64,000 bases of DNA from an uncultured Holophagae bacterium. Lineage in GTDB: Bacteria > Acidobacteriota > Thermoanaerobaculia > Thermoanaerobaculales > Sulfomarinibacteraceae. A model generated the notes under the pieces. It saw nothing but the letters and a program-made list of their open reading frames with translations, ran no database searches and was not told the origin of the DNA. This document shows positions 1-64,000 of this stretch, in pieces; the stretch's first letter is position 1; each line of letters opens with the position of its first letter. The DNA is taken from assembly GCA_963801995.1 (NCBI GenBank), contig CAWDGW010000017.1, positions 27,690-91,689 of the forward strand, in the 5' to 3' direction. The position numbers and the translations under genes are program-made.

Positions 1-458
1 GCAACCTCTACCAGTTCCTGCCGAACGGGACTCTTGTGGGCACCGGTTCGGCCCCAACCAGCAAACCAACCGGCCTGACCTGGGACGGAACATATCTCTG
101 GACGGCAGATTACCAGGCCGATATGATCTACCAGTTCGACACCAGTGGGGCGGTTGTCCACTCCTTTCCCTCCCCGACTCCAAACCCATGGGGTGTCGCC
201 TGGTGCAGCGGTTCGCTATGGACCTCTGCAAGCGTTGACAACATGTATATCAAGGTGAACCCCACCACGGGAGCGGTGATCGAGTCGTTTCCGGCACCAG
301 CAGGCGCCTGGCCGCTGGGACAGGACTGCCAATCGGCCAACCTGCTCTGGTCAGTAGGGAACCACAACAACCTGATCTACCTCATCGACCTCGGCGTGCT
401 GTTCACCGACGGCTTCGAATCCGGCGACACCTCGGCGTGGTCGCAGACCGTGCCGTAA
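1..458 (+). CDS. 3' part of a secreted beta-propeller-like repeat protein (5' end outside window) ending in the DGFESGDTSAWS tail
   Basis: The reading frame is open from the window edge (track ORF 36..458). It has repeated blade-like segments (YLWTADYQADMIYQFD, SLWTSASVDNMYIKVN, LLWSVGNHNNLIYLID). The C-terminus is LFTDGFESGDTSAWSQTVP-stop. Confidence 0.6.
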   Translation, partial: NLYQFLPNGTLVGTGSAPTSKPTGLTWDGTYLWTADYQADMIYQFDTSGAVVHSFPSPTPNPWGVAWCSGSLWTSASVDNMYIKVNPTTGAVIESFPAPAGAWPLGQDCQSANLLWSVGNHNNLIYLIDLGVLFTDGFESGDTSAWSQTVP

Positions 459-483
459 CGGCGGGAAATGACCTTCCGAAGTC

Positions 484-632
484 AGTGCCATGACCGACAC
501 CTTTGGCATTGTGGTTCCCCAAGATCACAGACCGTTCACGACGTAGAGGCTCAAGATTCTCGGCCATGAACCGAGTCCATCGCGCGAAGTGTCATAAGTG
601 TCGGCCCTGGCACCAGAACTTGGCACCAGAAC
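484..632. repeat. REP/MITE-like element, long (~130 bp) variant
   Basis: Termini are AGTGCCAtgaCCGACA ... TGTCGGCCCTGGCAC. It is the reverse-oriented homologue of the element at 36401..36551. It is followed by a GGCAC-N8 tandem tail (cagaacttggcaccagaac). Confidence 0.6.
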
Positions 633-884
633 TTTTTGGGACACTATCCATTGTTCGACAGGTGCCAATCCAAACGGCGCAAACCAGAATCGCTGCGCAA
701 AACAGCAGGCTCACGAGGATCAGAGTCTTATTCACCCTTTTCTTCCCGGAGTTGCCTTACGATACGAATTCAGAGGACGTAAGCCGCGCTCGCGCGGGTC
801 GCGGTCCGCCTGAAACGACCCTGTTAGGCGTGTGTCACTCTTCATACCTGGATCTGGATGATAGCCCTGATTGGCAAATGACTG

Positions 885-1850
885 TCAAGTGCCGGGGAGT
901 CTCCCTGTGTCCTTCAGGAATCGCTGCAGATCGTCGTGGAGCTTGTCGAGACGCGGTCGTTGATTCTCGTCGATTGCGCTCCGGAGTCTTCCAATTCGGG
1001 TGAGAGTCTCGGGGTAGCTCGAAACGTAGAGCGCTATTTTTGCTTCATTCGCGACTGGATCTGAGTGGTACTCAAGAAATGCCCACAGAGCTGCGTTTGA
1101 AGCCGTGGTTCTGGTGAGCTGTTCCTCATTGGCGTGAGGATTCGACGTGGACCAGCCAACGGAGTTGCCTGTCTTGCCCAGAGCGGTGAGGAGTTGCCGA
1201 GCGAATTCGGGCGGAGGATGTTTGTACAGTTCTGTGGCCAGTCTCTTGGCCGCGATCTCTCGTCTGGCTGCTCCGAGGCCCGTCAGGACAGCGTGCCGAA
1301 ACCACTCAGGTTGATCCTGATCATCTGCCAGGCCCAGCAGAATCTCGAGCGCCTGGTCGGATTCAAGTCTTGCAATAGACTCCGCAATCACGTGCGCTGT
1401 TGGGGCGTCATCCTCAATTCGAAGAAGAGCGACAAGCGATGGTAGGGATCTACTATCTCGCATCAAGCCAACTGCGAAGATTAGGTTGTGTCTGACCTGC
1501 GCCCAATAGTGGTCTGAGAGCTGATCGAGAGGTGGCTCCGCGACCACCAGGAGTTCCAAAGCTGGGGCCAGGAAGCGGGGTTCTTGACCGAGATGGAAGG
1601 CGAATGACACGACACCGGCATGTGACCGCGCGGCCATTTGAGGAGCCTCGGCGACAAGATCCTGGAGAGCGAAAAAGAAATCGGGATGTTGTTTCCGTGA
1701 CTCAAGAATCCAATCAAGCAAGGCTTCCCTGTCAGATGAGGACAAAAGGTCGAGGGGTCTTGCGGGAGGGGGGAATCCTTCGAGGTCTTGACACGACGGC
1801 AAGGCCAGCGAAGTGATGAGAATGAGGGCGTGTATCGAAGTTCGCCTCAT
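885..1850 (-). CDS. putative lipoprotein, helical (HEAT/ARM-like) repeat protein
   Basis: 321-aa ORF. The N-terminus MRRTSIHALILITSLALPSCQ looks like a signal peptide with a lipobox-like Cys. The sequence is helix-rich and I recognised no catalytic motif. Confidence 0.5.
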   Translation of the reverse strand: MRRTSIHALILITSLALPSCQDLEGFPPPARPLDLLSSSDREALLDWILESRKQHPDFFFALQDLVAEAPQMAARSHAGVVSFAFHLGQEPRFLAPALELLVVAEPPLDQLSDHYWAQVRHNLIFAVGLMRDSRSLPSLVALLRIEDDAPTAHVIAESIARLESDQALEILLGLADDQDQPEWFRHAVLTGLGAARREIAAKRLATELYKHPPPEFARQLLTALGKTGNSVGWSTSNPHANEEQLTRTTASNAALWAFLEYHSDPVANEAKIALYVSSYPETLTRIGRLRSAIDENQRPRLDKLHDDLQRFLKDTGRLPGT

Positions 1851-1941
1851 GGCAAGGGTTCCCTCCTACAGCCTACCGATTTCGAGCTAAGCGGACCAAA
1901 CCCGGAAGGGTTTGGGTCCGCTTGAGCGAGTGGTTAGGCAT

Positions 1942-2211
1942 TCACTTCCCCTTGTAAACCGTGCTGCGGTGGCCGACCTTGACCACAATGACGATTAGAA
2001 CGTCGTCCTCGATCGAGTAGACGATCCTGTAGGGGCCCTGACGGACACGATACCTGCTTGAGTGCCCGGCGAGCTTCTCGCAACCAGGTGGTCGAGGGTC
2101 ATCAGACAATCGCGCGATACGGTTGACGATCTGACGCCGCACCTTTTTTGGCTCGATATGCTCGATTTCCTTTGCGGCGGAGGCTTTGAGCCGGACGCTA
2201 TATTTTGCCAC
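1942..2211 (-). CDS. type II toxin, RelE/ParE family
   Basis: 89 aa. The pattern ...DDPRPPGCEKLAGHSSRYRVRQGPYRIVYSIEDDVLIVIVVKVGHRS is typical of RelE/ParE toxins. It overlaps the upstream antitoxin ORF by 14 nt. Confidence 0.85.
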   Translation of the reverse strand: MAKYSVRLKASAAKEIEHIEPKKVRRQIVNRIARLSDDPRPPGCEKLAGHSSRYRVRQGPYRIVYSIEDDVLIVIVVKVGHRSTVYKGK

Positions 2212-2428
2212 TGCGTTTCAGCGCTTTAACGAAGGTGTCGAAATCAAGGTCCGGTTCAGAAGCTCGAACGTCGAACGCTTCAAGGTCTTCTGCATCTTCG
2301 GCCAGCGCCAATCGGACGGCATCATTTACCATTTCGGATATCGATTGGTCTGTAGACGCTGCCTTGAGTTTCAACGCCCTGTGAATCTCGGGATCAAGAT
2401 ATACGGTAGCTCGACGAAGTTCGCTCAT
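2198..2428 (-). CDS. ribbon-helix-helix (CopG-like) antitoxin
   Basis: 76 aa. The N-terminal RATVYLDPEIHRALKLKAA is an RHH beta-strand plus helix signature. It lies immediately upstream of, and overlaps, the RelE/ParE ORF. Confidence 0.8.
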   Translation of the reverse strand: MSELRRATVYLDPEIHRALKLKAASTDQSISEMVNDAVRLALAEDAEDLEAFDVRASEPDLDFDTFVKALKRSGKI

Positions 2429-2579
2429 GTTTGAAAGATAACGTCAAAACATCAAAACGTCAACTAGCCCAACGGTCCGCTGGAATGAGTTGTAGTAATG
2501 GTGCCAGGTACGGGTAATGGTGCCAGGTACGGGGGTATTGATGTTAAGATGACTCTACCGAATCCAGTGGAGATAGGGG

Positions 2580-3575
2580 ATGGGTCGTCGACCAAGGGTT
2601 CTTGTTGCGGGTGGTATATACCATGTGTACAACCGGGTAACTCGCGGCGCGGATGTTTTTAAGAACGAGGACGAGGCGGACAGGCTGGAAGCCCTCGTTG
2701 CCGAGACCAAGAAGAGAGACGATTTTCAGATCCTCGCCTGGTGCGTGATGTCGAACCACTACCATCTCGCCGTAAGAATGGGGGAGGTATTGCTGTCGCG
2801 ATCGATGCGAAGGATCCACCATCGGTTTTCGCAGAGTTACAACGGCAGGAATCGGCTGTTCGGTCCTTTCTGGCAGGGTCGCTACCGATCGAAGATTGTG
2901 GATGACGACGAGTATCTGAGGCAACTCATCGCGTACATTCATCTCAATCCGGTAGCTGCAGGCATTGTCACCGACGCAGCAGAATACCGATGGTGCGGGC
3001 ATCGGGAGGTACTGGGGAAGGCGCTTGGGCGTCGTTTGGTCGACGTTGACGAGACCCTATTGGCTTTCGGCCCCAAGCGGCGCAGCGCGTTGGCTGGATA
3101 TCGTTCGACGATGTCAAGTGGGCATGAACAGGATTGGTGGGGGGAAGGTCCTGGTCGGCTGCCCTGGTGGCGGGTGGGGCGTCCTCCGAACAGCGATGAC
3201 GGAATGGAGATCGCCGTCGACGACAAACGTCCACGGATTGGGGTGGACGGGCTGAGTAGTGTCATGCCGAGGCCGAGGATGGCGCTCGAAGAATTTCTCG
3301 AGCACGGTGCAGGAGCGTGCGGGATCACGCTGACAGATCTCAGGAGCCGAAAACGACGGGCGTCGATTGTAGAAGCTCGAGAAATACTGGCCTGGATTGG
3401 TGTTGAGTTGTTTGGTTTTTCGGTCAAGGAAATGGCCGAAGGGCTCGAAAAGTATGTTGAAACTGCCAGTCGGCTGGTCAGCAGGGCTTCGCAGCGAAGG
3501 ATTGTGGATCAGGGCTTTGAGGATCAGGTAAGGCGGGTTGATTCTGTACTCGCGGGGACGACGGAAACGCAATGA
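2580..3575 (+). CDS. REP-associated tyrosine transposase (RAYT, IS200/Y1 HUH family) with C-terminal DnaA-C-like HTH region
   Basis: YHVYNRVTRG start, HUH motif in WCVMSNHYHLAV, and a Tyr helix in LIAYIHLNPVAAGIV...YRWCGH. The C-terminal REILAWIGVELFGFSVKEMAEGL resembles a DnaA domain IV-type HTH. Confidence 0.85.
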   Translation: MGRRPRVLVAGGIYHVYNRVTRGADVFKNEDEADRLEALVAETKKRDDFQILAWCVMSNHYHLAVRMGEVLLSRSMRRIHHRFSQSYNGRNRLFGPFWQGRYRSKIVDDDEYLRQLIAYIHLNPVAAGIVTDAAEYRWCGHREVLGKALGRRLVDVDETLLAFGPKRRSALAGYRSTMSSGHEQDWWGEGPGRLPWWRVGRPPNSDDGMEIAVDDKRPRIGVDGLSSVMPRPRMALEEFLEHGAGACGITLTDLRSRKRRASIVEAREILAWIGVELFGFSVKEMAEGLEKYVETASRLVSRASQRRIVDQGFEDQVRRVDSVLAGTTETQ

Positions 3576-3712
3576 GGAGTCAAAACATCAATACCCCAGT
3601 ACCTGGCACCTTTACGCTCTTAAGGCGGGTTGATTCTGTACTCGCGGGGACGACGGAAACGCAATGAGGAGTCAAAACATCAATACCCCAGTACCTGGCA
3701 CCTTTACGCTCT
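3529..3712. repeat. perfect 92-bp tandem duplication (3529..3620 and 3621..3712)
   Basis: The two copies read identically by eye: taaggcgggttgattctgtactcgcggggacgacggaaacgcaatgaggagtcaaaacatcaataccccagtacctggcacctttacgctct. The duplication covers the last 47 nt of the RAYT gene plus its right inverted repeat. Confidence 0.9.
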
Positions 3713-3789
3713 TACCCGGGACGGTGCTACACTCGCATCGAGCTCGGTTCCAGCAGCGTGAGAGTTCAGGTCGGCAGGAGGAAGCGGGA

Positions 3790-4515
3790 GTGAAGCGAGC
3801 AATCGTCATCATCGCTCTGGCGGCCGTTCCGGCTCTCGCGGACGACGTCTACCTGAAGGGCGGCGGCCGATTCTCGGGCGAGATCGTCGAGCGCACGGAG
3901 GACTCGGTTACAGTGGACATCGGTGGGGGCGTTTTGACCGCGCCGATGTCGAGCGTCGTCCGCATCGAAGAGGGCGTGTCCCCCCTCCAGGATTATCGGG
4001 AGCGAGCTGCGGCCGTCCCCGCCGGCGACGCCGAGGCGTGGCGGCAGCTCGCGCGGTGGGCGCAGGATCAGAGCCTGTCGAGCCAGGCGTGGGAGGCGTA
4101 CACCGAGGTGGTCGAGATCCTGCCGGACGACGAGGAAGCCAACCGCGCGCTCGGCCGGGTGCCGCTCGACGGGCGGTGGGTCACCGAGGAGGAGAGCTAT
4201 CGCGCCCAAGGTTACGTGGAGTTCGAGGGCGAGTGGATGACACCGGGCGAGCGGCAGGCGATCGTCAAGGAGCGGCGGGCCCGCGAGGAGGCGGATCGGA
4301 AAGCGAACGAGGCCGAGATCCGGGCCATCCAGGCCGAGATCGATGCCGAGAAGGCGCGCGAGGACGAGGAGTTCGAACGACAGTCGTCGAGGTACGACCG
4401 CCTGCCGGAGTACGATCCGACCACCTGGGGATGGGGAACCGGTCCCGGAAATTGGCCCCGCCCGGCTCGATACTCCAAACCACAAGAGCTGGCCGGCCCG
4501 CTCGAAGGACCGTGA
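3790..4515 (+). CDS. secreted hypothetical protein with charged coiled C-terminal half
   Basis: GTG start at 3790 preceded by GGAGG. Signal peptide VKRAIVIIALAAVPALADD. I judge the track ORF 3664..4515 to be over-extended into the duplicated repeat. Confidence 0.6.
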   Translation: MKRAIVIIALAAVPALADDVYLKGGGRFSGEIVERTEDSVTVDIGGGVLTAPMSSVVRIEEGVSPLQDYRERAAAVPAGDAEAWRQLARWAQDQSLSSQAWEAYTEVVEILPDDEEANRALGRVPLDGRWVTEEESYRAQGYVEFEGEWMTPGERQAIVKERRAREEADRKANEAEIRAIQAEIDAEKAREDEEFERQSSRYDRLPEYDPTTWGWGTGPGNWPRPARYSKPQELAGPLEGP

Positions 4516-4532
4516 TGAACAGGGAGGCTCCC

Positions 4533-5261
4533 ATGAGGGGTCGCTTCATTGCACTTCCGCTCCTCGGCGCCCTCCTCGCGGGGTGCTCCTCACCCTCGCC
4601 GGTCGACGAGATTGTCGCTTCCAACCTCGCCGCTCGTGGCGGCAAGGTGCGGCTCCAGGAGCTCCAGTCGATCCGCGAGTCCGGCACGGCGACCGCGAGT
4701 GGCGGGCGGATCGCCCACGTGGTCCGCGAGATCAAGCGGCCGGGCCTCTTCCGGCTCGAGTTCTCCTACCAGGGAACGACCAGCGTCTTCGCCAACGACG
4801 GCGAGATCGGCTGGCAGGTCGCGCCGTTGCAGGGCCAGTTCGAGCCCCAGGTGATGCCACCGGAGACTGACGCGGCCGCTGGGGTCGACCAGCGCGACAT
4901 CGAGGGCCCTCTCGTCGACTGGCGAGAAAAGGGGCACGTCGTCGAGCTCGTTGGCAGTGAGGCCCTGCCCGGCGGAGAGGCCTTCAAGCTGAAGGTGACG
5001 CTCGCGAGCGGCGCGGTCCGATACGACTACGTCGACGTGGCGTCGCGCCAGGTCGTCCGCTCCGACTTCAAGCGGATGATCCGGGGGCGCCCGGTCGTGC
5101 TCCAGAACACCTTTTCGGACTTTCGGGAGGTCGGTGGGCTCGCCTTCCCTCACCTCATCGAAACTCACGCCAAGGACCGCCCCGAGGTCCTCAGGATCGA
5201 GATCGAGGAGATCGAGCTCGACCCAGAGCTCGACGACGCGCGGTTCCGGTTGCCCGAATAG
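4533..5261 (+). CDS. LolA-like outer-membrane lipoprotein-sorting family lipoprotein
   Basis: MRGRFIALPLLGALLAGCSS is a lipoprotein signal. The region EIVASNLAARGGKVRLQELQSIRESG...KRPGLFRLEF...NDGEIGWQV matches the pattern I recall for this family. GGGAGG precedes the ATG at 4533; an alternative ATG lies at 4515. Confidence 0.6.
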   Translation: MRGRFIALPLLGALLAGCSSPSPVDEIVASNLAARGGKVRLQELQSIRESGTATASGGRIAHVVREIKRPGLFRLEFSYQGTTSVFANDGEIGWQVAPLQGQFEPQVMPPETDAAAGVDQRDIEGPLVDWREKGHVVELVGSEALPGGEAFKLKVTLASGAVRYDYVDVASRQVVRSDFKRMIRGRPVVLQNTFSDFREVGGLAFPHLIETHAKDRPEVLRIEIEEIELDPELDDARFRLPE

Positions 5262-5292
5262 CGACTCCCACCACCCGCGTATCGAACCACCC

Positions 5293-5335
5293 GGTGCCAG
5301 GGCGGACACTATTGACGGTTTTGGGTGAGTCGATG
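5293..5335. repeat. partial REP copy
   Basis: GGTGCCAGGGCGGACACTATTGACGGTTTTGG resembles the left part of the 84-bp REP at 6924. Confidence 0.4.
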
Positions 5336-5495
5336 AGGCTGACTGACGTGCTCCCCATTTTCATACCACGAGGAATGAGAGAGATCAACACGGTTGGTGC
5401 TCCTCGTGGGTCCCGGTGGGGGGAGCAATCAGGACGGAGGTCGACGTAGTCGGCCGGAGTCCGGATTGCTCGGCGAACTCGACTCGAGGGGTGCC

Positions 5496-5727
5496 ACGTG
5501 AGCCTCTTGCAAAACCCCCATGGCTGTCATCCTGAGCGGAGCGGCCCGAAGGGTCGCGGAGTCGAAGGATCTCAACCAGTACAGAGGAGTGATGCTTGCC
5601 CAGCAACTTTCTTCTCAACGTGTGGAGACCCATCGACTCGCTCGTCGAACTCGCTCGCTCAGGGTGACAGGAGGGAGCGGTATCGATCAAACATCGCCGA
5701 ACGTGGGGTTATGCATGAGGCTCACGT
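5496..5727. repeat. ~230-bp MITE-like structured element, copy A
   Basis: Near-identical over ~200 bp to 16164..16387. Terminal inverted repeats are ACGTGAGCCTCTTGCAAAACCCC / GGGGTTATGCATGAGGCTCACGT. Internal arms are complementary (gtcatcctgagcggagcgg...cgaagg vs ccatcgactcgctcg...gctcagggtgac). Confidence 0.8.
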
Positions 5728-5892
5728 ATCACGTTATTACTTTGCGTCACCCAACGTTGTCATTCGATACGTGTCACCAACCATTTTCGGTTTCGCGACG
5801 AAGGCTGTGAGAGGATTGGAGGCGTGCTGGGATTCGAAAGGGAAAAAATCATGTTTCGGAATGATGCGACGATTTTCGGTCTCGTGCCCGCG

Positions 5893-6908
5893 ATGAAACT
5901 CATAACTCATCACGGGAGTCGACTCGCCCTTTGCTTGGCAATCGTCACAGTGGCGGCGTTGCCCGCTCTGGCGGCGGATGAAACCGAGCTCCTCCTCGCG
6001 TCCGACATTTGGCCGCCGTTCACCGACCAGGACGGCAAGCATCGTGTCGCGATCGAGATTGCCCACACCGCGCTCGAGCGAGCCGGAATCCAGGCAGCGA
6101 CCACGGTGGTCGACTGGAAGGATGTCGAGCGCGGGATTCAGCGCGGATCTTTTGACGGGAGCGCCGCCATGTGGCGATCCATCCAACGGGAACGGGAATT
6201 CCTGTTTTCCGATCCGTACCTCGAAAACCGCCTCGTGCTGATTGGACGCAAGGGAACCGATGTCAGAGCAACACAATTTCGGACCTCGGCGGCAAGAGGG
6301 TGGCGGTGGTCGGTCACTACGCCTACGGCGAGGAGATCGACTCGGCCCAAGGCGTGTTCTTTGTGAGCGGGCGCAACGATCAGGAGAACCTCGACAAGCT
6401 GCTGACTGGGGACGTGGACTACATGCTGGGGCGGATGAGCTGGTGGCGCGCTACCTGCTGACCTACCAGCCGGAAGAGGCCGCCGCGAAGCTCGAGATCG
6501 GGACCACACCGCTGGCTCGACGGACACTCCACTTTGTGTTGCGGCGGAACATGGTCGGCGCCGCACAGATCATCGGGGCTTTCAACCGGGAGATCCGCAG
6601 TATGCTGGCCGACGGAACGTGTCGCCAAGATCCTGCAGCTTGGCTGGATTCAGGTGGACATCGACGGCGACGGTCGTGATGAGGTGGTCGCGCTGGGAGA
6701 TAGGGTGGGCCTCGCGCCACCGGGATCGGTTTACGATATCTTCGGGACGATGCCCGAGACCGACCCGGAGAAGCAGCGCTTTTTCATTGAAGGGAACATC
6801 TACGACAGCTGGGACGCGATCCCGGAGCAGTACAAAGCCCGAGGACCGTCGGAACCCATGGACACGTCCATTTCGCAGGGCGTAACGATGTTCACTCTCA
6901 AGTTCTGA
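5893..6908 (+). pseudogene. periplasmic solute-binding protein (family 3, amino-acid-ABC-type SBP) disrupted by three frameshifts
   Basis: Signal peptide MKLITHHGSRLALCLAIVTVAALPALA. The homology-like sequence continues across four track ORFs (5824.., 6171.., 6242.., 6534..). Frame switches occur near 6265, at the G4 run 6428..6431, and near 6620. Confidence 0.7.
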
Positions 6909-6923
6909 ACACGAATAATTGCA

Positions 6924-7007
6924 GGTGCCAGGGCCGACATTTTTGACAGTTTCAGACGAGCGGATTACGGCGGAGCGCGAAGTGTCATACGTGTCGGCCC
7001 TGGCACC
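6924..7007. repeat. 84-bp REP element (reverse orientation)
   Basis: GGTGCCAGGGCCGACAtttttgacagtttcagacgagcggattacggcggagcgcgaagtgtcatacgTGTCGGCCCTGGCACC. It is the reverse complement of the copies at 11604 and 12133. Confidence 0.85.
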
Positions 7008-7210
7008 GTATTTGCCCTGGTGCGGGAGTGGTGCCCGGCACCACGGAACCACTGCCAAACGTGATGTTTTCGTTACATCCGTATGATGACTTCGTGACCT
7101 CCGGGACCTACATTGAGATTGGAGACAAACACCGTGTGACGGCAGGTGGCTACCGTCGCGTGCCGGAGCGGCGGTGCCAGATCGAATCGAACTGTCTCAG
7201 GAGGTCAGTC

Positions 7211-9177
7211 ATGTTCGCACTCGCACGCAAGAATGTACTTTGGGCGGCCGTCGTGCTTGACGTTGCCGTTATCGGCCGCTGCCGGCGCCGAGGCCTCTCT
7301 GGAGCAGATGGAGGGATGGCCTTACGCGGGGCGAGCGCTGTCGCCGTCGATGCCGATCGCGACCTGGTCTATTCGGGCAGCGGTGGGGTCATTCTCGTGC
7401 TGGACGTGGCTGATCCTGCCATGCCGCAACTGTTGCATGACGGTCTGCACACCGACGGCCATGTTCGCGATCTGGGTTACGTCGGTGCGGACAAGCGTCT
7501 ATACGTGGCCGATTGGCGGGGCGGACTTGAAATCTGGGATGTCCAAGACCCGCAGAACCCGGTGCGGCTCAGCACCGTGCCGGTGTACTGCATCGGAACA
7601 GACAGCGACCAGCCGACCGATGGGCTGGTCCTTGCGGGTGGCTACCTGTATGTCAACGCCAACGAGGCCCGCGTCCACGCCTCGACATCTCTGATCCCGC
7701 CAATCCCGTCGATCTGGGCGTGCAGGCCGGTCCGTTGTGGTACTACACCTACGAGCGCGACACGGACGATGTTGCCGCTGAGGGTGGCTACGTCTACGTC
7801 GTGGGCAGCGGCATCGCCAAGTATCTCATCCGCAGCAGACGGAACCCTCGACAAGGTCGGCGAGAACACGTACATCGATAAAATCAGCTGCATTGAGGTT
7901 CAGGGATCTTACGCGTACGCGGGCGAATCAATCAATCCTGGGGGTCATCGATGTCAGTTCCTCCTACCCAAATACGGTGGGGAGCGTCGCCGTGTCCGAG
8001 GGTCTGAATGATCTGGCGTTGACCGGGAACTTCGTGGTGGGGGTGAACCGCAACGGCCTCCTCATCTTCGACGTTTTCAACGCCGCAACAGCCGCAGCAG
8101 ATCGCTTCTCTGCTTCTGCCTGACGGATACCGTGTGCGCCTGGACGGCGACCTTGCTTTCGTGTCCAGCGACGCCGCTGGCTTGCAGGTGATCGACATCA
8201 GCGACGTTCATAACCCCGTCCTGATCGGCAGCTTCGACACGGTGGGTACGACCTCCGGTGTGACGGTCGCAGGGAACTACGCATTCCTCGGCCAGAGCAC
8301 CGAAGGCCTCGTGATCACGGATGTCAGCGATCCGAGCGCGGTGCAATTCGCAGGCCGGTCCGACGATGGTGGCTCGGATCGCGGGATCCCTGCTGATCGG
8401 AAACTATCTGTACGTTTCGGACTGGTACGCACCTGCACTGAGGGGGCTCGATGTCAGCGACCTGTCCAACCCGGTCGAGGTGGGCGGCATCTTGGACTTC
8501 ACAGGCGGTTGGATCTGGCGACCGACGGGGAGGCACCTGTACGCGACGCGCTTCTCGGTCGATACGCAGTTGTACTACCTGCACGTTTTCGACCTGACGG
8601 ATCCTGCATCGCCGACGGAGCTGAGCATGATTCCGGTGTCACATCACGTTCTCGAAATTCAGTACGCAAATGACCATCTTTTTGCCATCGAGTTCTACGA
8701 CATGGGCTTGCACATTATCAACGTCGCCGATCCGAACAATCCGTTTGAAGACGCCTTCTATCCCGTTGATTGGGGTGAGGATGTCTGGATCCAGGGGGAT
8801 TATGCGTATGTGACGTCATTCCACCAGGGTCTGCTGGTGATGAACATCGGCGATCCCGCCAATCCGACCCTGGCCGGGAGCTTCTACGAGGTATTCCAGT
8901 TCGGCGATGTGGCCGTTTCCGGAGAGCCTGGCCTTCATCACAACTGGGACGACCGGAGAGCAGCACTTGCGGCTGTACGACGTGAGCGATCTGGACAACA
9001 TCTATGAGCTCGACCGGATCCGCTTGCCCGGCGACGCCTGGGATCTGACGGCGCAAGGTAACTATGCGTACGTGGCGGATGGCTTTGCCGGCCTGCCAGA
9101 TTCTACGCGCCGGGACCTGGGACGGGATGATGTTCGCCGACGGCTTCGAGTCGGGCGACATGTCGAGGCCTTCGTAG
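7211..9177 (+). pseudogene. LVIVD-repeat secreted protein, heavily frameshifted (about ten frame switches)
   Basis: ATG at 7211 after GGAGG. Repeated LVIVD-type units occur (GLEIWDVQDPQNP, GLQVIDISDVHNP, GLVITDVSDPSAV, GLDVSDLSNPVEV, LHIINVADPNNP, GLLVMNIGDPANP, LRLYDVSDLDNI). They are spread over track ORFs 7028, 7146, 7893, 8134, 8321 and 8907. The gene ends MMFADGFESGDMSRPS-stop at 9177. Confidence 0.7.
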
Positions 9178-9221
9178 CAACTGTCGGACTGATCTCCGTG
9201 CAGGTCGGGGTTGTCCGATCC

Positions 9222-9305
9222 AGTGCCGGGCCGACAGGTGTGACACTTCGCGCTCCGCCGGTGATCTACTCGTCTGAAACTGTCAAAGCTGTCGGCTCTG
9301 ACACC
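9222..9305. repeat. 84-bp REP element (diverged copy)
   Basis: AGTGCCGGGCCGACAGGTGTGACACTTCGCGCTCCGCCGGTGATCTACTCGTCTGAAACTGTCAAAGCTGTCGGCTCTGACACC. Confidence 0.8.
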
Positions 9306-9391
9306 TGAATTCGGTAACCCCGTGCGCCTTGAATCCGTTTGTCCGACCGTTGAGTGGTAGCCTGAAGAGAACCAGATAGGGGAAAATCAAT

Positions 9392-9684
9392 ATGCCGGAG
9401 GTCGGATCACCATTCAGGGTTGGCAAACGACAAAAGCTCACAGACGAGGAACTGGTCAGAGCAATTGGCTTCATGGTGGCTGCAGAATACGAAGCGATCC
9501 AGCTGTACATGCAGCTTGCGGAGTCAACGGACAATAAACTCGCTACGGAAGTGCTCGAGGACATCGCGGACGAGGAACGTGTCCATGCCGGTGAGTTCCT
9601 GAGATTGCTCCGAGAGCTATCCCAGATGAAGAGAAGTTCTATGCCGAAGGGGCACAAGAAGTGGAAGAAGAAATCGCGAAATGA
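9392..9684 (+). CDS. small ferritin-like (EncFtn/rubrerythrin-like half-ferritin) protein; needs a 1-nt correction at 9621..9623
   Basis: The metal-site pattern AAEYEAIQLY ... DIADEERVHAGEFLRLL follows the ExxH type. After the C3 run at 9621..9623 the +1 neighbouring frame gives a sensible acidic tail, PDEEKFYAEGAQEVEEEIAK-stop (9682..9684). The track frame instead runs into the repeats. Confidence 0.6.
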
Positions 9685-10647: not shown

Positions 10648-10951
10648 CTGAGTGCCTCCGTTTGAGTGAGAGTTCGGAATCTTTTCTGATCCAATTCTGG
10701 GATTGTATCACGTAATCAAAAAAGCGCGGATTCCTGAGATAAATATTCAATTAAAAGGAGGCGTCGGACGTTGAGGTCGTCTTTTCCCGGCCAACTCTCA
10801 AAGCATCAAAGCATGGGTGCCAGGTCCGCAGTTCCGTAGTTGTCAGGCCGTAACTGCGGAACTACGAACCTGGACCGAAGGAGGTATCCTTGGCAGATGT
10901 GCGATAATATGTTTTGGTGCTTATGTGCAAGATTGAAAAAGGAGAGCGACT

Positions 10952-11188: not shown

Positions 11189-11646
11189 CGGCGCGTGTCG
11201 CCGTTGTCGACACCAATGTGGTCGTGAGCGGGCTCTTGACCTCGAGTATCGACGCTCCCACCTCAAGGATCCTCGATTCCATGCTTTCCGGTGCGCTGCG
11301 GTTCGCCCTTTCCGTCGAACTGCTCGCGGAGTACAGGTCGGTCCTGCTTCGCAAGAAGATTCGATCGCGCCACGGGCTCGATGAGGCCCAGATCGACACC
11401 ATCCTGACCGCCGTTGCGGAGAACGCCGTCATCTGCGAACCCGCCGATCCACCCTCGTATCCCCCGGATCGCGGCGATCTTCACCTATGGGCCCTGCTCG
11501 CCGCCCGCCCGGGAACCGTCCTCGTCACCGGCGATCAGGCTCTCGTAGACAACCCCCCGAACTGGGCGTCGGTGGTCACACCGCGGACCTTTCTCTCCAA
11601 TCCAGTGCCAGGGCCGACAGGTATGACACTTCGCGCTCCGCCGTAA
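11185..11646 (+). CDS. PIN-domain toxin (VapC-like)
   Basis: MTARVAVVDTNVVVSGLL has the acidic PIN start, and later ...LVTGDQAL. The ATG at 11185 is in frame with track ORF 11116..11646. The 3' end runs into the REP at 11604. Confidence 0.8.
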   Translation: MTARVAVVDTNVVVSGLLTSSIDAPTSRILDSMLSGALRFALSVELLAEYRSVLLRKKIRSRHGLDEAQIDTILTAVAENAVICEPADPPSYPPDRGDLHLWALLAARPGTVLVTGDQALVDNPPNWASVVTPRTFLSNPVPGPTGMTLRAPP

Positions 11647-11687
11647 TCTACTCATCTGAAACTGTCAAAAATGTCGGCCCTGGCACC
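11604..11687. repeat. 84-bp REP element (forward orientation)
   Basis: AGTGCCAGGGCCGACAGGTATGACACTTCGCGCTCCGCCGTAATCTACTCATCTGAAACTGTCAAAAATGTCGGCCCTGGCACC. Confidence 0.9.
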
Positions 11688-11691
11688 TGGA

Positions 11692-12051
11692 TTAGGATTC
11701 AGGTTCGTCGTCGAGGGTCAGGAAAAAGGCCCGGTCGGAGATGAAGTGCACACCGCGCAGGGAAGGTTCTTGAAGGAAATCTCCCTCCGCGTCGGATGGA
11801 GGTTCGGTCCACGTGTCGGCTTGCAGCTGGACCAACCAGCCCGAGATTTCCGGTTCTCCCGTGATCATGTCCGCGAGGGTCTGTTCTACGAACGCAATCG
11901 CTTCAGCGTAGCTCGACGCCGTCACGCCGAACAGCTGATAGTATCCGTTGGCCGCATTCGGCGAGTCCTCGTCATCGGCGTCGAACTCCAGCGGCTCCTC
12001 GAGCGCCATTTCGATTTCGACGCGAAAAAAGCCCAGATCATCAGCGACCAT
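11692..12051 (-). CDS. small acidic hypothetical protein
   Basis: 119-aa ORF with GC-rich third positions and no recognised motif. It is bracketed by two same-orientation REP copies. Confidence 0.4.
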   Translation of the reverse strand: MVADDLGFFRVEIEMALEEPLEFDADDEDSPNAANGYYQLFGVTASSYAEAIAFVEQTLADMITGEPEISGWLVQLQADTWTEPPSDAEGDFLQEPSLRGVHFISDRAFFLTLDDEPES

Positions 12052-12132
12052 GTCGTCTCCTTGCTGTTCGAGCTCAGCGGACCGAAGCCGTGCCCCGGCC
12101 AGTTTGGGTCAACCGAGACGGGGTTTGAATTC

Positions 12133-12240
12133 ACTGCCAGGGCCGACAAGTATGACACTTCGCGCTCCGCCGTGATCTCCTGATCTGAAACTGTCAAAAA
12201 TGTCGGCCCTGGCACCTGGATTTCGGCACCTGGATTTCGG
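12133..12240. repeat. 84-bp REP element (forward) plus GGCAC-N9 tandem tail
   Basis: CTGCCAGGGCCGACAAGTATGACACTTCGCGCTCCGCCGTGATCTCCTGATCTGAAACTGTCAAAAATGTCGGCCCTGGCACC is followed by tggatttcggcacctggatttcgg. Confidence 0.9.
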
Positions 12241-15080: not shown

Positions 15081-15171
15081 CGCGCCTTCGGCACCGACAC
15101 CGACCACTCCAAGGTATCGCCGTTCTCGAATCCGTCCGCGAAGATCGGCCCTGGCACTGACGTGTATCTGA

Positions 15172-16095: not shown

Positions 16096-16144
16096 CGGAT
16101 CCTCCCTGTTGGCCCGACTTGGCAATGTAACACAATGTCAACTC

Positions 16145-16408
16145 AGTGCCAGGGCCGACACTTGAGCTTCTTGCAAAACCCCCATGGCTGTCATCCTGAG
16201 CGGAGCGGGCCGAAGGGTCGCGGAGTCGAAGGATCTCAACCGGCGCAGAGGCGTGATGCTTGCCCAGTAGCTCTCTTCTCAACTTGTGGAGACCCTTCGA
16301 CTCGCTCGTCGAACTCGCTCGCTCAGGGTGACAGGAGGGAGCGGTATCGATCAAACATCGCCGAACTTAGGGTTTTGCAAGAAGCTTACTTATGACACTT
16401 CGAGGTGG
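16145..16408. repeat. REP half-site interrupted by MITE copy B (16164..16387)
   Basis: AGTGCCAGGGCCGACACTT | GAGCTTCTTGCAAAACCC...GGGTTTTGCAAGAAGCTT | ACTTATGACACTTCG. ACTT is present on both sides of the insert. The insert is ~90+% identical to 5496..5727. Confidence 0.8.
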
Positions 16409-20092: not shown

Positions 20093-20167
20093 TCGGATCT
20101 CCGGGAGTGGGTGAGGGGGGATCCACAAATTGGTACCGGTGACACATCCGGACAGTCAGAACATCAT

Positions 20168-20201
20168 GTACCTGGTACGACTTCGTACCAGGTACTTTTT
20201 T
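20168..20201 (+). terminator. rho-independent terminator
   Basis: gtacctggtacg actt cgtaccaggtac forms a 12-bp stem followed by tttttt. It lies 75 nt after the stop at 20092. Confidence 0.8.
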
Positions 20202-22850: not shown

Positions 22851-22876
22851 CCCCGCTCTTCGGAGCGGGGCTTTTT
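22851..22876 (+). terminator. rho-independent terminator
   Basis: ccccgctc ttcg gagcgggg forms an 8-bp stem with a UUCG loop, followed by cttttt. It lies 26 nt after the stop at 22825. Confidence 0.8.
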
Positions 22877-23156
22877 GAATTGGAACCGGGTACGCATCCG
22901 GACAGTGATTCAATCGTGCACCTGGCAACCATCAAGCCGCCCCGCGAGAACAAGGTGGACCACAGACAACACTACGGGATCGTGACGCTCCAATCCGACG
23001 TGTGGCTGATATCGACCGATGTGAGATCTCGTGTGATCCCCATCGCCCCCGGTGATTCCACTCCGAAATCTTCCAGGCCTGAAGCCGGCGGCTGCTTCGG
23101 CGCCGCCCGGGCACGGTCCGAGCGCCTCCTCGCCCTGGGCCTCGAGTCAGCTGCGG

Positions 23157-36390: not shown

Positions 36391-36400
36391 GGTCAAAGTC

Positions 36401-36551
36401 AGTGCCAGGGCCTACACTCGTGACACCTTGCGCGAAAGACCTCAGTTCATGACCGAGAGTCTTGGCCCTCTGCGTCGTACAAGAACCGGCGTATTTTTGG
36501 GGACCAATCGTCAAAGGTGTCGGCCCTGGCACTGATTTGGCACTGATTTCG
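36401..36551. repeat. REP/MITE-like element, long variant, plus GGCAC-N7 tandem tail
   Basis: AGTGCCAGGGCCTACA...TGTCGGCCCTGGCAC followed by tgatttggcactgatttcg. It is the reverse-complement homologue of 484..632. Confidence 0.75.
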
Positions 36552-56991: not shown

Positions 56992-57179
56992 ACCTCACCT
57001 CAGTTCACCCTGCGCTGCCAACTCACCGACAACAGCAGGCCACAGCCGTAGCCAGGGGGGTCGTCTCGAGGGAGGGGGCTGGTGTACGGCTGTCTGCTGG
57101 TGGCGGGGAGTCGCGTTGAAGCAGCCAACGGCTGCGACAACGTAAACTGCCAACGGCCAACGGCCAACTGCCAACCTGC

Positions 57180-63087: not shown

Positions 63088-63439
63088 CCTTAGTTCTTAG
63101 TTTTGAGTTCTTAGTTTCCCCTTCCGCCCTTGAGGAGCCGCAGAGGAGCAGAGGGGCGGGGGAGCAGAGGAGAAACTGCCTTCTACGATTCGGGTGCGTC
63201 TTCCCCTCTGCCCCTTTTCTCCTCTGCCCCTCTGCCGACCAGGAAGCTGCCTCGCCCGATTGAGCCGGTAGGCAGAAGCGCGAATCACTGCACAGGTTTC
63301 AATGACACCTTGCCAACAGCCAACTGCCAACTCACCGACAGCAGCAGCCCCCAGCTGCGACTTTCTAAACGGCCAACTGCCGACTGCCAACTGCCGACTG
63401 CCAACTGCCAACTGCCGACTGCCGACTGCCAACTGCCAA
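63088..63439. repeat. low-complexity repeat tract: TTAGTTC units, inverted GCAGAGG-rich arms, and a 7-bp microsatellite (CCRACTG x ~9.5)
   Basis: ttagttcttagttttgagttcttagttt (63090..63117). gcagaggagcagaggggcggggg...(63139..) faces cccctctgccccttttctcctctgcccctctgcc (63203..63237). ccaactgccgactgccaactgccgactgccaactgccaactgccgactgccgactgccaactgccaac (63373..63439). Related ccaac(t/g)gcc units lie at 57146..57180. Confidence 0.85.
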
Positions 63440-63445
63440 CGGATG

Positions 63446-64000
63446 TCACTCGCCGGCATCGCCACCGTCCTGCACCGGCGGAGCGGCAAACTGGACTGGC
63501 GGTGGAATTTCCTCACCCAGGGCGTCATCGACCAGCTGCTGAGCCGACCGACGGGCTGCCCGGCCCTGGGCCCGACTGGCTTCGGGATAGGCCCTGCCAG
63601 CCGTGTCCGGCCTTTTCCACTGCTCCTCGCGGAGATAGAGGGTCTGGGTGGGGAATGCGAACTCCACGCCCTGATCGTGCGCCAGGCGCAGGACGTCCAC
63701 CGCCAGCCGGTGCCGTTCGCGCAGTTCCGTGGCCCAATCGGGCGTTTCGAAAAAGACGTAGAGCAGGAGCTCGAGACTGGCCGCGCCGAACTCGTTGAAG
63801 TAGACGTGGTAGTAGTCCTTGCGGGTGTAGGGATGGCGTTCGACCAGCTCTCGGATCCCCTCGCAGAAGGCATCCACCGTCTCCGGTGGGGTGTTGTAGG
63901 CGATGCCCAGCCGGGTGCTCCACCGCCTGAATCGGCGCGCCCCGAGATTGTCCACCGACGCCTTGATGAGGTTCGAATTCGGAAGGGTGATGAGGGAGTT
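63446..64000 (-). CDS. MscS-family mechanosensitive channel, C-terminal part (5' end outside window)
   Basis: The frame is open to the window edge. ...SLITLPNSNLIKASVDNLGARRFRRWSTRLGIAYNTPPETV is the MscS beta-domain pattern. Confidence 0.75.
   Translation of the reverse strand, partial: NSLITLPNSNLIKASVDNLGARRFRRWSTRLGIAYNTPPETVDAFCEGIRELVERHPYTRKDYYHVYFNEFGAASLELLLYVFFETPDWATELRERHRLAVDVLRLAHDQGVEFAFPTQTLYLREEQWKRPDTAGRAYPEASRAQGRAARRSAQQLVDDALGEEIPPPVQFAAPPVQDGGDAGE

Follow-up and report, generated by a model that had tools for sequence, protein, structure and literature searches.

A RAYT-like gene between long inverted repeats with duplicated ends on an acidobacterial contig: a likely TIRtron

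We analysed a 64,000-nt stretch of DNA from an uncultured Holophagae bacterium of the Acidobacteriota (GenBank assembly GCA_963801995.1, contig CAWDGW010000017.1, positions 27,690 to 91,689), which we refer to as the window and number from its first letter. Near the start of the window is a cassette in which a gene for a protein of 331 amino acids (2580..3575, +) is bracketed by a left terminal inverted repeat of 32 nt (2514..2545, +) and a right terminal inverted repeat (3584..3615, -), with additional copies of the tips outside both. In our view the region is likely to be a TIRtron and its gene a TIRYT, a relative of the REP-associated tyrosine transposases (RAYTs), with each enzyme lineage acting on its own type of repeat, the dispersed repeat dimers of the window answering to a paralogue and the end duplications having been made in place.

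The protein comprises an HUH/Y1 nuclease domain (residues ~5-145), a PGRLPWW linker and a helix-turn-helix resembling domain IV of DnaA (residues ~220-321). An earlier note on this DNA, made from the sequence alone, had picked out the motifs SNHYHLAV and AYIHLNPV in the 331-residue open reading frame and both are present. It had also called the protein RAYT-like, and this holds: the score against the NCBIfam model REP_Tyr_transpos (NF047646) is 92.7 bits with a cut-off of 80. Pfam gives Y1_Tnp at E = 3e-13, while for the single 331-residue sequence the match to Bac_DnaA_C is below threshold (22.3 bits against 31.5). An alignment of 37 family sequences, in which His60, His62, Tyr119 and the linker motif are invariant, was searched as a profile against the PDB. 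This matched E. coli TnpA-REP (4er8, E = 8.6e-10) over residues 5-145 and domain IV of DnaA (2hcb/1l8q, E = 2.7e-6) over residues 220-321; IS200/IS605 transposases were weak with the same profile (E ~0.9). Foldseek searches with an AlphaFold2 model of the protein (mean pLDDT 85) returned 4er8 at E = 9e-8 and, for the C-terminal part, the DNA-binding domain of DnaA (3pvp with a target TM-score of 0.91 and an rmsd of 1.5 Å; 1j1v, 0.86). The DnaA-like tail proposed in the earlier note is thus backed both by the family profile and by superposition of structures.

TnpA-REP (Ton-Hoang et al, 2012), the best solved relative of the catalytic domain, has in common with the cassette clade that a short conserved tag stands beside a variable part (GTAG in E. 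coli, GTGCCAGG in the cassette clade). However, it has 165 residues and no DnaA-like domain, and its REPs are hairpins recognised as single-stranded DNA whereas the cassette repeats are unfolded. The TnpA proteins of IS200/IS605 elements such as IS608 and ISDra2 share the HUH/Y1 fold but are of ~150 residues with a Y..NQ-type Tyr motif, and their elements, present in many copies, have hairpins in subterminal position and lack inverted repeats. A better fit to such an ordinary TnpA, which the earlier note had allowed for, was not seen, TnpA-REP being far stronger by profile. The length of 331 residues, the YIHLNP motif, the inverted repeats, the lack of hairpins and the one copy in the window do not fit an IS200/IS605 insertion sequence.

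Homologues of ~330 residues number more than 1000, mainly from Thermoanaerobaculia-like Acidobacteriota, and in a library of representatives at 50% identity the protein matches 132 clusters at E <= 1e-30 and 27,539 at E <= 1e-3. The plasmid search returned distant relatives of the N-terminal part (<=34% identity) and nothing else, and so gives no sign that this clade is plasmid-borne. No RNA family was found by Rfam in 1800..4200, and a scan for promoters and terminators gave nothing above chance, the sole promoter-like site being that of the toxin-antitoxin operon upstream.

The left repeat consists of the tip GTAAT, the head GGTGCCAGG and a lineage-specific body ending TATTGATGTT. Its head is 60 nt ahead of the ATG, matching close relatives. 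The inverted repeats of 27 bp described previously (2519..2545 and 3584..3610) are present, though imperfect at 26/27 with a G/T difference at position 13, and grow to 32 nt with 30/32 matching (94% complementary); in 30 shuffles of 2000..4200 a 32-nt match did not exceed 22/32. The doubling of the left head, placed at 2500..2518 by the earlier note, appears in the repeat search with a period of 19 nt, 2495..2513 being equal to 2514..2532, such that an outer partial copy of the left tip (GTAATGGTGCCAGGTACGG) precedes the repeat on the same strand. When folded as single-stranded DNA each repeat, on either strand, gave 0 to -2.2 kcal/mol, no better than shuffles, and the tip is GTAA(T/A), not GTAG as in the foot of a REP. 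The folding rules out a hairpin, and with it the earlier description of the flanking repeats as REP-type. Some relatives have a palindromic head (GGTGC-CAG-GCACC or GGTAC-CAG-GTACC) and others do not, and a conserved hairpin is therefore unsupported. Within the window the full head GGTGCCAGGTAC is confined to this cassette and there are no further copies of the cassette's own repeat type (GGTGCCAGGTACGGGGGTATTGATGTT / GGTACGGGGGTATTGATGTT), although solo and paired copies of that type are present in the related loci L014, L084 and L086.

Relatives were drawn from GTDB genomes, JGI metagenomes and other assemblies. In 36 loci, with protein identities of 36-80%, the gene is bracketed by inverted repeats, which start ~41-101 nt (mostly 54-75) ahead of the ATG and ~34-147 nt past the stop. 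Alignment of the 72 ends on the head gave eight positions, GTGCCAGG, with 1.5-2.0 bits each, the remainder having mostly less than 1 bit. The body is specific to the lineage and usually contains two direct repeats of ~8 nt (TTAGGAAC/TTAGGAAG, GACGATCC/CGACGATC or TTATGATG/TTATGATG); in the window cassette the pair is imperfect (TTGATGT/TAAGATG). The head is found in the Acidobacteriota clade and in a Bacillota clade (Syntrophomonas and relatives) and was not found in the relatives from Verrucomicrobiota, Pseudomonadota and Myxococcota, which match by the N-terminal domain only. The core of the body, TGATGTT, tracks the residues E-T-[AV]-S-R in the predicted recognition helix, including in relatives that are 47-54% identical, and in L003 (57% identical), where the helix has K-T-A-S-Q, the body differs. 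This is a hint that the DnaA-like domain may read the repeat body.

Because the flanking repeats do not fold as hairpins we describe the unit as a TIRYT in a TIRtron and not as a REPtron. It matches the TIRYT/TIRtron class of Di Nocera, De Gregorio & Rocco (2013, BMC Genomics 14:522, PMC3733652) and subclass 2.1.2 of the TnpA-Y1 proteins (Quentin et al, 2018, PMC6006769), a placement made from motifs and domain architecture and not from a tree including the published reference sequences. In the first paper TIRYTs are RAYT-like genes located between long inverted repeats instead of REPs, and a genome can have several such genes with different repeats each, the acidobacterium Koribacter versatilis having three. 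GGGGWSAS is given there as the motif of most but not all of the TIRYT repeats, making it a majority feature that does not define the class. As described there, the likeness to our cassette lies in long terminal inverted repeats at a fairly constant distance from a RAYT-like gene and in repeats that in some genomes are moderately abundant as single copies, dimers and clusters (PMC3733652). The cassette clade differs in sharing the head GTGCCAGG and lacking GGGGWSAS, as judged against the description and motif of the published repeats.

Quentin et al (2018) equated TIRYTs with TnpA-Y1 subclass 2.1, which has the HuH motif NH[YF]H, a Bac_DnaA_C or other helix-turn-helix C-terminus (the kinds in the class being Bac_DnaA_C, HTH_23 and HTH_28) and no REP-like structures, and they cross-referenced subclass 2.1.2 to RAYT Group 1 of Bertels et al (2017, PMC5581495). 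TIRYTs are the largest RAYT-like group, with subclass 2.1 in ~15% of the strains sampled (PMC6006769). The motifs NHYH (HuH) and YIHLNP (Tyr) of our protein fit those of class 2 and subclass 2.1, and it resembles subclass 2.1.2 in the NH[YF]H motif, the Tyr motif Y---NP, its length and its Bac_DnaA_C-like C-terminal helix-turn-helix, as well as in the lack of REP-like hairpins nearby and the patchy taxonomic distribution (PMC6006769). Where we differ from Quentin et al (2018, PMC6006769) is that they doubted that the helix-turn-helix reads the repeats; the paired ~8-nt direct repeats in the bodies and their tracking of helix residues weakly suggest that it does.

The window has 12 occurrences of the head motif GGTGCCAGG, where 0.8 would be expected. 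Six dimers of 82-131 bp without a gene (479-620, 6919-7013, 9217-9311, 11599-11693, 12128-12222 and 36396-36540) and a few solo ends (5293 (+) and 16146 (+)) belong to a dispersed family with ends GTGCCAGGGCCGACA, and for one of the dimers folding gives a long hairpin (-28 kcal/mol, z = -7.9). These ends agree at 22-27 of 32 positions with the repeat of the L009/L102 TIRYT, whose protein is 41% identical to that of the window, the exceptions being the end at 9223, which is shifted by an indel, and a doubtful solo end at 15157. With the repeat of the window cassette they agree at 13-18 of 32, i.e. in the head alone. One dimer aligns to both ends of the L009 cassette, past the repeat, as an internally deleted cassette would. 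By tblastn there is one TIRYT gene in the window. The earlier note had seen that the head is common to the dispersed repeats, and an 8-9-nt head is indeed shared, but the bodies match the L009/L102 repeat instead. As the bodies belong with a different paralogue, the cassette enzyme is probably not the mobiliser of the dispersed repeats, a role the note had suggested for it and for which the shared head is the sole support; the most likely enzyme would be an L009/L102-type paralogue encoded outside the window. If so, a paralogue of the L009 type, with GGTGCCAGGGCCGACA ends, should be encoded elsewhere in the genome, and dispersed copies of the GGTACGGGGGTATTGATGTT type should be few or absent. 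The dimers are similar to REPINs (Bertels & Rainey, 2011, PMC3116915) in having two inverted copies of a recognition repeat with a short spacer, in forming a long hairpin and in being dispersed between genes, but they are built of repeat halves that are not palindromic and resemble internally deleted L009-type cassettes.

At the right end of the cassette a segment of 92 nt is perfectly duplicated in tandem, as the earlier note stated. Unit one (3529..3620, +) contains the last 47 nt of the gene, the spacer, the right repeat and 5-6 nt that match the host flank; unit two (3621..3712, +) is identical to it at 92/92 and provides a second right repeat (3676..3707, -) and a spurious ATG at 3664, which is in frame with the next gene. 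Identity at a period of 92 spans 94 nt, leaving a 2-nt TA microhomology at the junction. The downstream gene (3790..4515, +; 241 amino acids) lies outside the element and its true start is likely to be the GTG at 3790, which is preceded by a ribosome-binding site (GGAGGAAG) and followed by a signal-peptide-like N-terminus. A homologue of this gene, 92% identical, is found on an 894-kb contig of a related genome (L163), in which the DNA equivalent to 3707..5284 (+) is present at 7918-9493 with 94% nucleotide identity and the cassette is absent. From the start of this homology the right boundary of the element is at 3706/3707, equivalent to 3614/3615 in unit one, where the host flank opens (C)GCTCT and the element closes ...GGCACCTTTA(C). 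The duplicated unit includes 5-6 nt of host flank, and so the duplication formed in place, when the cassette was already present there. The block shared with L163 is of 1.58 kb with two genes, its left bound being the right end of the cassette and its right bound the repeat head at 5293, so that there are repeat elements at both breakpoints of synteny.

Duplications of the ends, of 10-267 nt, recur in independent assemblies. In L080 (77% identical, from a different assembly) there are four right ends, the product of duplications nested in one another (61, 267 and 34 nt) and taking in the 3' end of the gene; others are of 155 nt in L004, 43 nt in L101 and 27 nt in L102. Over all loci there are 31 cases of a tandem duplication immediately outside the head that comprises a few nucleotides of the tip or flank together with the first part of the head. 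In 21 of these the copy ends after GTGCCA (13), GTGCC (5) or GTGCCAG (3), with differing flanks and repeat types. An adjacent outer duplication is seen at 29 of 259 heads compared to 0.55% of random positions in the same DNA, a 20-fold excess. Duplications of 10-19 nt comprising tip or flank bases and GTGCC(A) are also visible in three of the dimers in the window, at 613(-), 12215(-) and 36532(-), and the same short duplications occur in related loci, e.g. L002 3930, L028 2947, L089 4028, L103 158 and L107 1608.

A mechanism that would tie these features together is one in which the conserved HUH domain recognises the conserved head and nicks there, while the DnaA-IV-like helix-turn-helix binds the body and sets the specificity. 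With the head and body read in this way, each enzyme lineage would act on DNA bounded by its own type of repeat, that is, its own cassette and the gene-less dimers of the same type. Each of the two tips would then have been duplicated locally and in tandem where it stands, giving the 92-nt and 19-nt copies, and nicking near GTGCCA^GG may be what provokes such events. The position of the inner breakpoint, after GTGCC(A) in many cases, suggests but does not show such a nick, and a nick-provoked local duplication at the head is the origin we favour for the end duplications. More tentatively, the enzyme at work may have left the short duplications next to the heads as its footprints; DNA would be broken preferentially at GTGCCA^GG and again at the tip or immediately beyond it.

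Several points weigh against this interpretation of the region. There is no match to GGGGWSAS on either strand in 2480..2580 or 3575..3720. The correspondence between body and recognition helix is confounded by common descent, with L003 as the single informative exception. The outer breakpoints of the duplications vary, from the tip to 6 nt outside it, which fits untargeted slippage equally well. Cross-mobilisation of the dispersed dimers through the common head is possible, and the numbers of repeats and TIRYT genes are those of the 64-kb window and not genome-wide. The site and strand of the nick and the role of the helix-turn-helix are our own inference, the class being without biochemistry; to our knowledge neither a substrate nor a cleavage site nor a role is established for any TIRYT.

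The duplications could be nothing more than errors of assembly or polishing at a repeat, affecting the 92-nt and perhaps the 19-nt copy. The perfect identity of the 92-nt units and the origin of the contig from a metagenome assembly would fit with this, and the earlier note had left the choice between a recent event and an artefact. We regard an artefact as improbable, because similar duplications are found in the independent assemblies L080, L004, L101 and L102, with more than 20 short ones besides, and because the unit spans the junction between element and host. Such a junction-spanning unit with a 2-nt microhomology is the signature of a real local duplication and not of a dispersed repeat that has been collapsed or expanded, and misassembly is not readily expected from a 92-nt unit that has no further copy in the window. 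A real and recent event is therefore favoured. If real, the duplications might still owe nothing to the enzyme and have come about through ordinary replication slippage or microhomology, as the 1-2-nt microhomologies at the 92-nt and 19-nt junctions and the variable outer breakpoints would allow. This seems to us unlikely, if not greatly so, given the 20-fold excess at heads over random positions in the same loci, the breakpoint after GTGCC, GTGCCA or GTGCCAG in 21/31 cases across flanks and repeat types, and the lack of hairpin potential in the repeats that might stall replication.

Two further explanations concern the cassette as a whole. A classical RAYT/REP system, with the flanking repeats as REPs and the enzyme mobilising the GGTGCCAGG-headed repeats dispersed in the window, would account for the NCBIfam RAYT score above its cut-off, for TnpA-REP being the nearest solved structure and for the over-representation in the window of a head common to the dispersed repeats. 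Such a system has little to recommend it when the repeats form no palindromic hairpins, the dispersed bodies fit the GGTGCCAGGGCCGACA-type repeat of another paralogue, the 64-kb window holds no extra repeat of the cassette type and each enzyme lineage across the ~36 loci has a repeat body of its own. The other explanation is that the cassette is an autonomous insertion sequence which still moves whole by means of its inverted repeats, with the end duplications as by-products of transposition. One contig (L079) does carry two cassettes of the same type 4 kb apart with 95.7% nucleotide identity, relatives lie in unrelated gene contexts and many are on contigs of 1.1-1.5 kb, and the cassette is missing from the matching place in L163 where the flank is 94% identical. 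In addition, the duplication rate of Group 1 of Bertels et al, 6.3%, is the highest of the true RAYT groups, exceeded by the IS200-like Group 6 alone, and some Group 1 members are located on plasmids (PMC5581495). On the other hand, there is one copy in the window, at most related loci each type is present once and the paralogues of a genome differ widely from one another. Neither a target-site duplication nor a clean empty site can be defined, as the search for an empty site through the downstream gene in L163 gave the right boundary only, the left flank having no counterpart there. We therefore think it rather doubtful that the cassette is an autonomous insertion sequence, and prefer a TIRtron in which whole-cassette movement would be occasional.

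For annotation, it follows that the "REP-associated" label of a protein model does not imply that REPs are present and that a common repeat head is insufficient for naming a mobiliser. The class is known but little-studied; what appears modestly new here is that the repeat is bipartite, that its head is conserved and that duplications of the ends recur. The cassette and its ~36 relatives form a natural set of substrates, with an invariant 8-nt head and bodies that can be swapped, and they offer a candidate nick site and a testable role for the DnaA-like domain. Were the HUH domain to read the conserved head and the DnaA-IV-like domain the two ~8-nt direct repeats, there would be a concrete model for the TIRYT class, and local end duplication would be one route to new repeat arrays and gene-less dimers.

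Several loci with relatives have more complex arrangements. L079 has three cassettes of two types within 6 kb (1-6100), and one of them is frameshifted. In L002 (2061-3931) the 5' part of the cassette is interrupted by ~0.8 kb, and in L011-L013 the gene matches are stretched to 1.3-1.45 kb, the left and right repeats of L012 being of different types. These arrangements point to nested insertion or to chimeras.

Immediately upstream of the cassette the window contains a ParE toxin and ribbon-helix-helix antitoxin pair (1942-2428, -). In the promoter region of this pair, 2443-2458 matches the inner right end of the cassette (3579-3594) at 15/16 positions, which may be a relic of another end or a chance match in A-rich sequence. 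A direct repeat of 257 nt, 89% identical, is found at 5476-5732 and 16140-16396; the second copy opens with a GTGCCAGGGCCGACA head and the first is ~180 nt past the solo head at 5293. A small palindromic dimer of another repeat type (~60 nt, GGTGCCAGGTCCGCAGTTCCGTAGTT...) is located at 10815-10875, with 8-mers swapped between its arms. At 20113-20200 the tips of two heads, which differ in type, face one another across 6 nt (GTACCTGGTAC-GACTTC-GTACCAGGTAC). The left head of this pair resembles the right repeat of L089, whose enzyme is a 61%-identical relative of that of the cassette, and the 63-nt left part has a 71%-identical copy at 22863 (22863-22928). Seven open reading frames, with ends at 458, 9177, 15038, 20092, 36390, 52437 and 57180, share a C-terminal motif of the type DGFESGDTSAWS..VP, and in four of them a repeat-derived element follows 12-46 nt past the stop. 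The 13-nt head-like match at 15157(-) is within coding sequence, just upstream of such a motif. Finally, tandem 7-nt repeats (GCCAACT/GCCGACT) occur at 57145-57179 and 63301-63451, forming an array of more than 100 nt.

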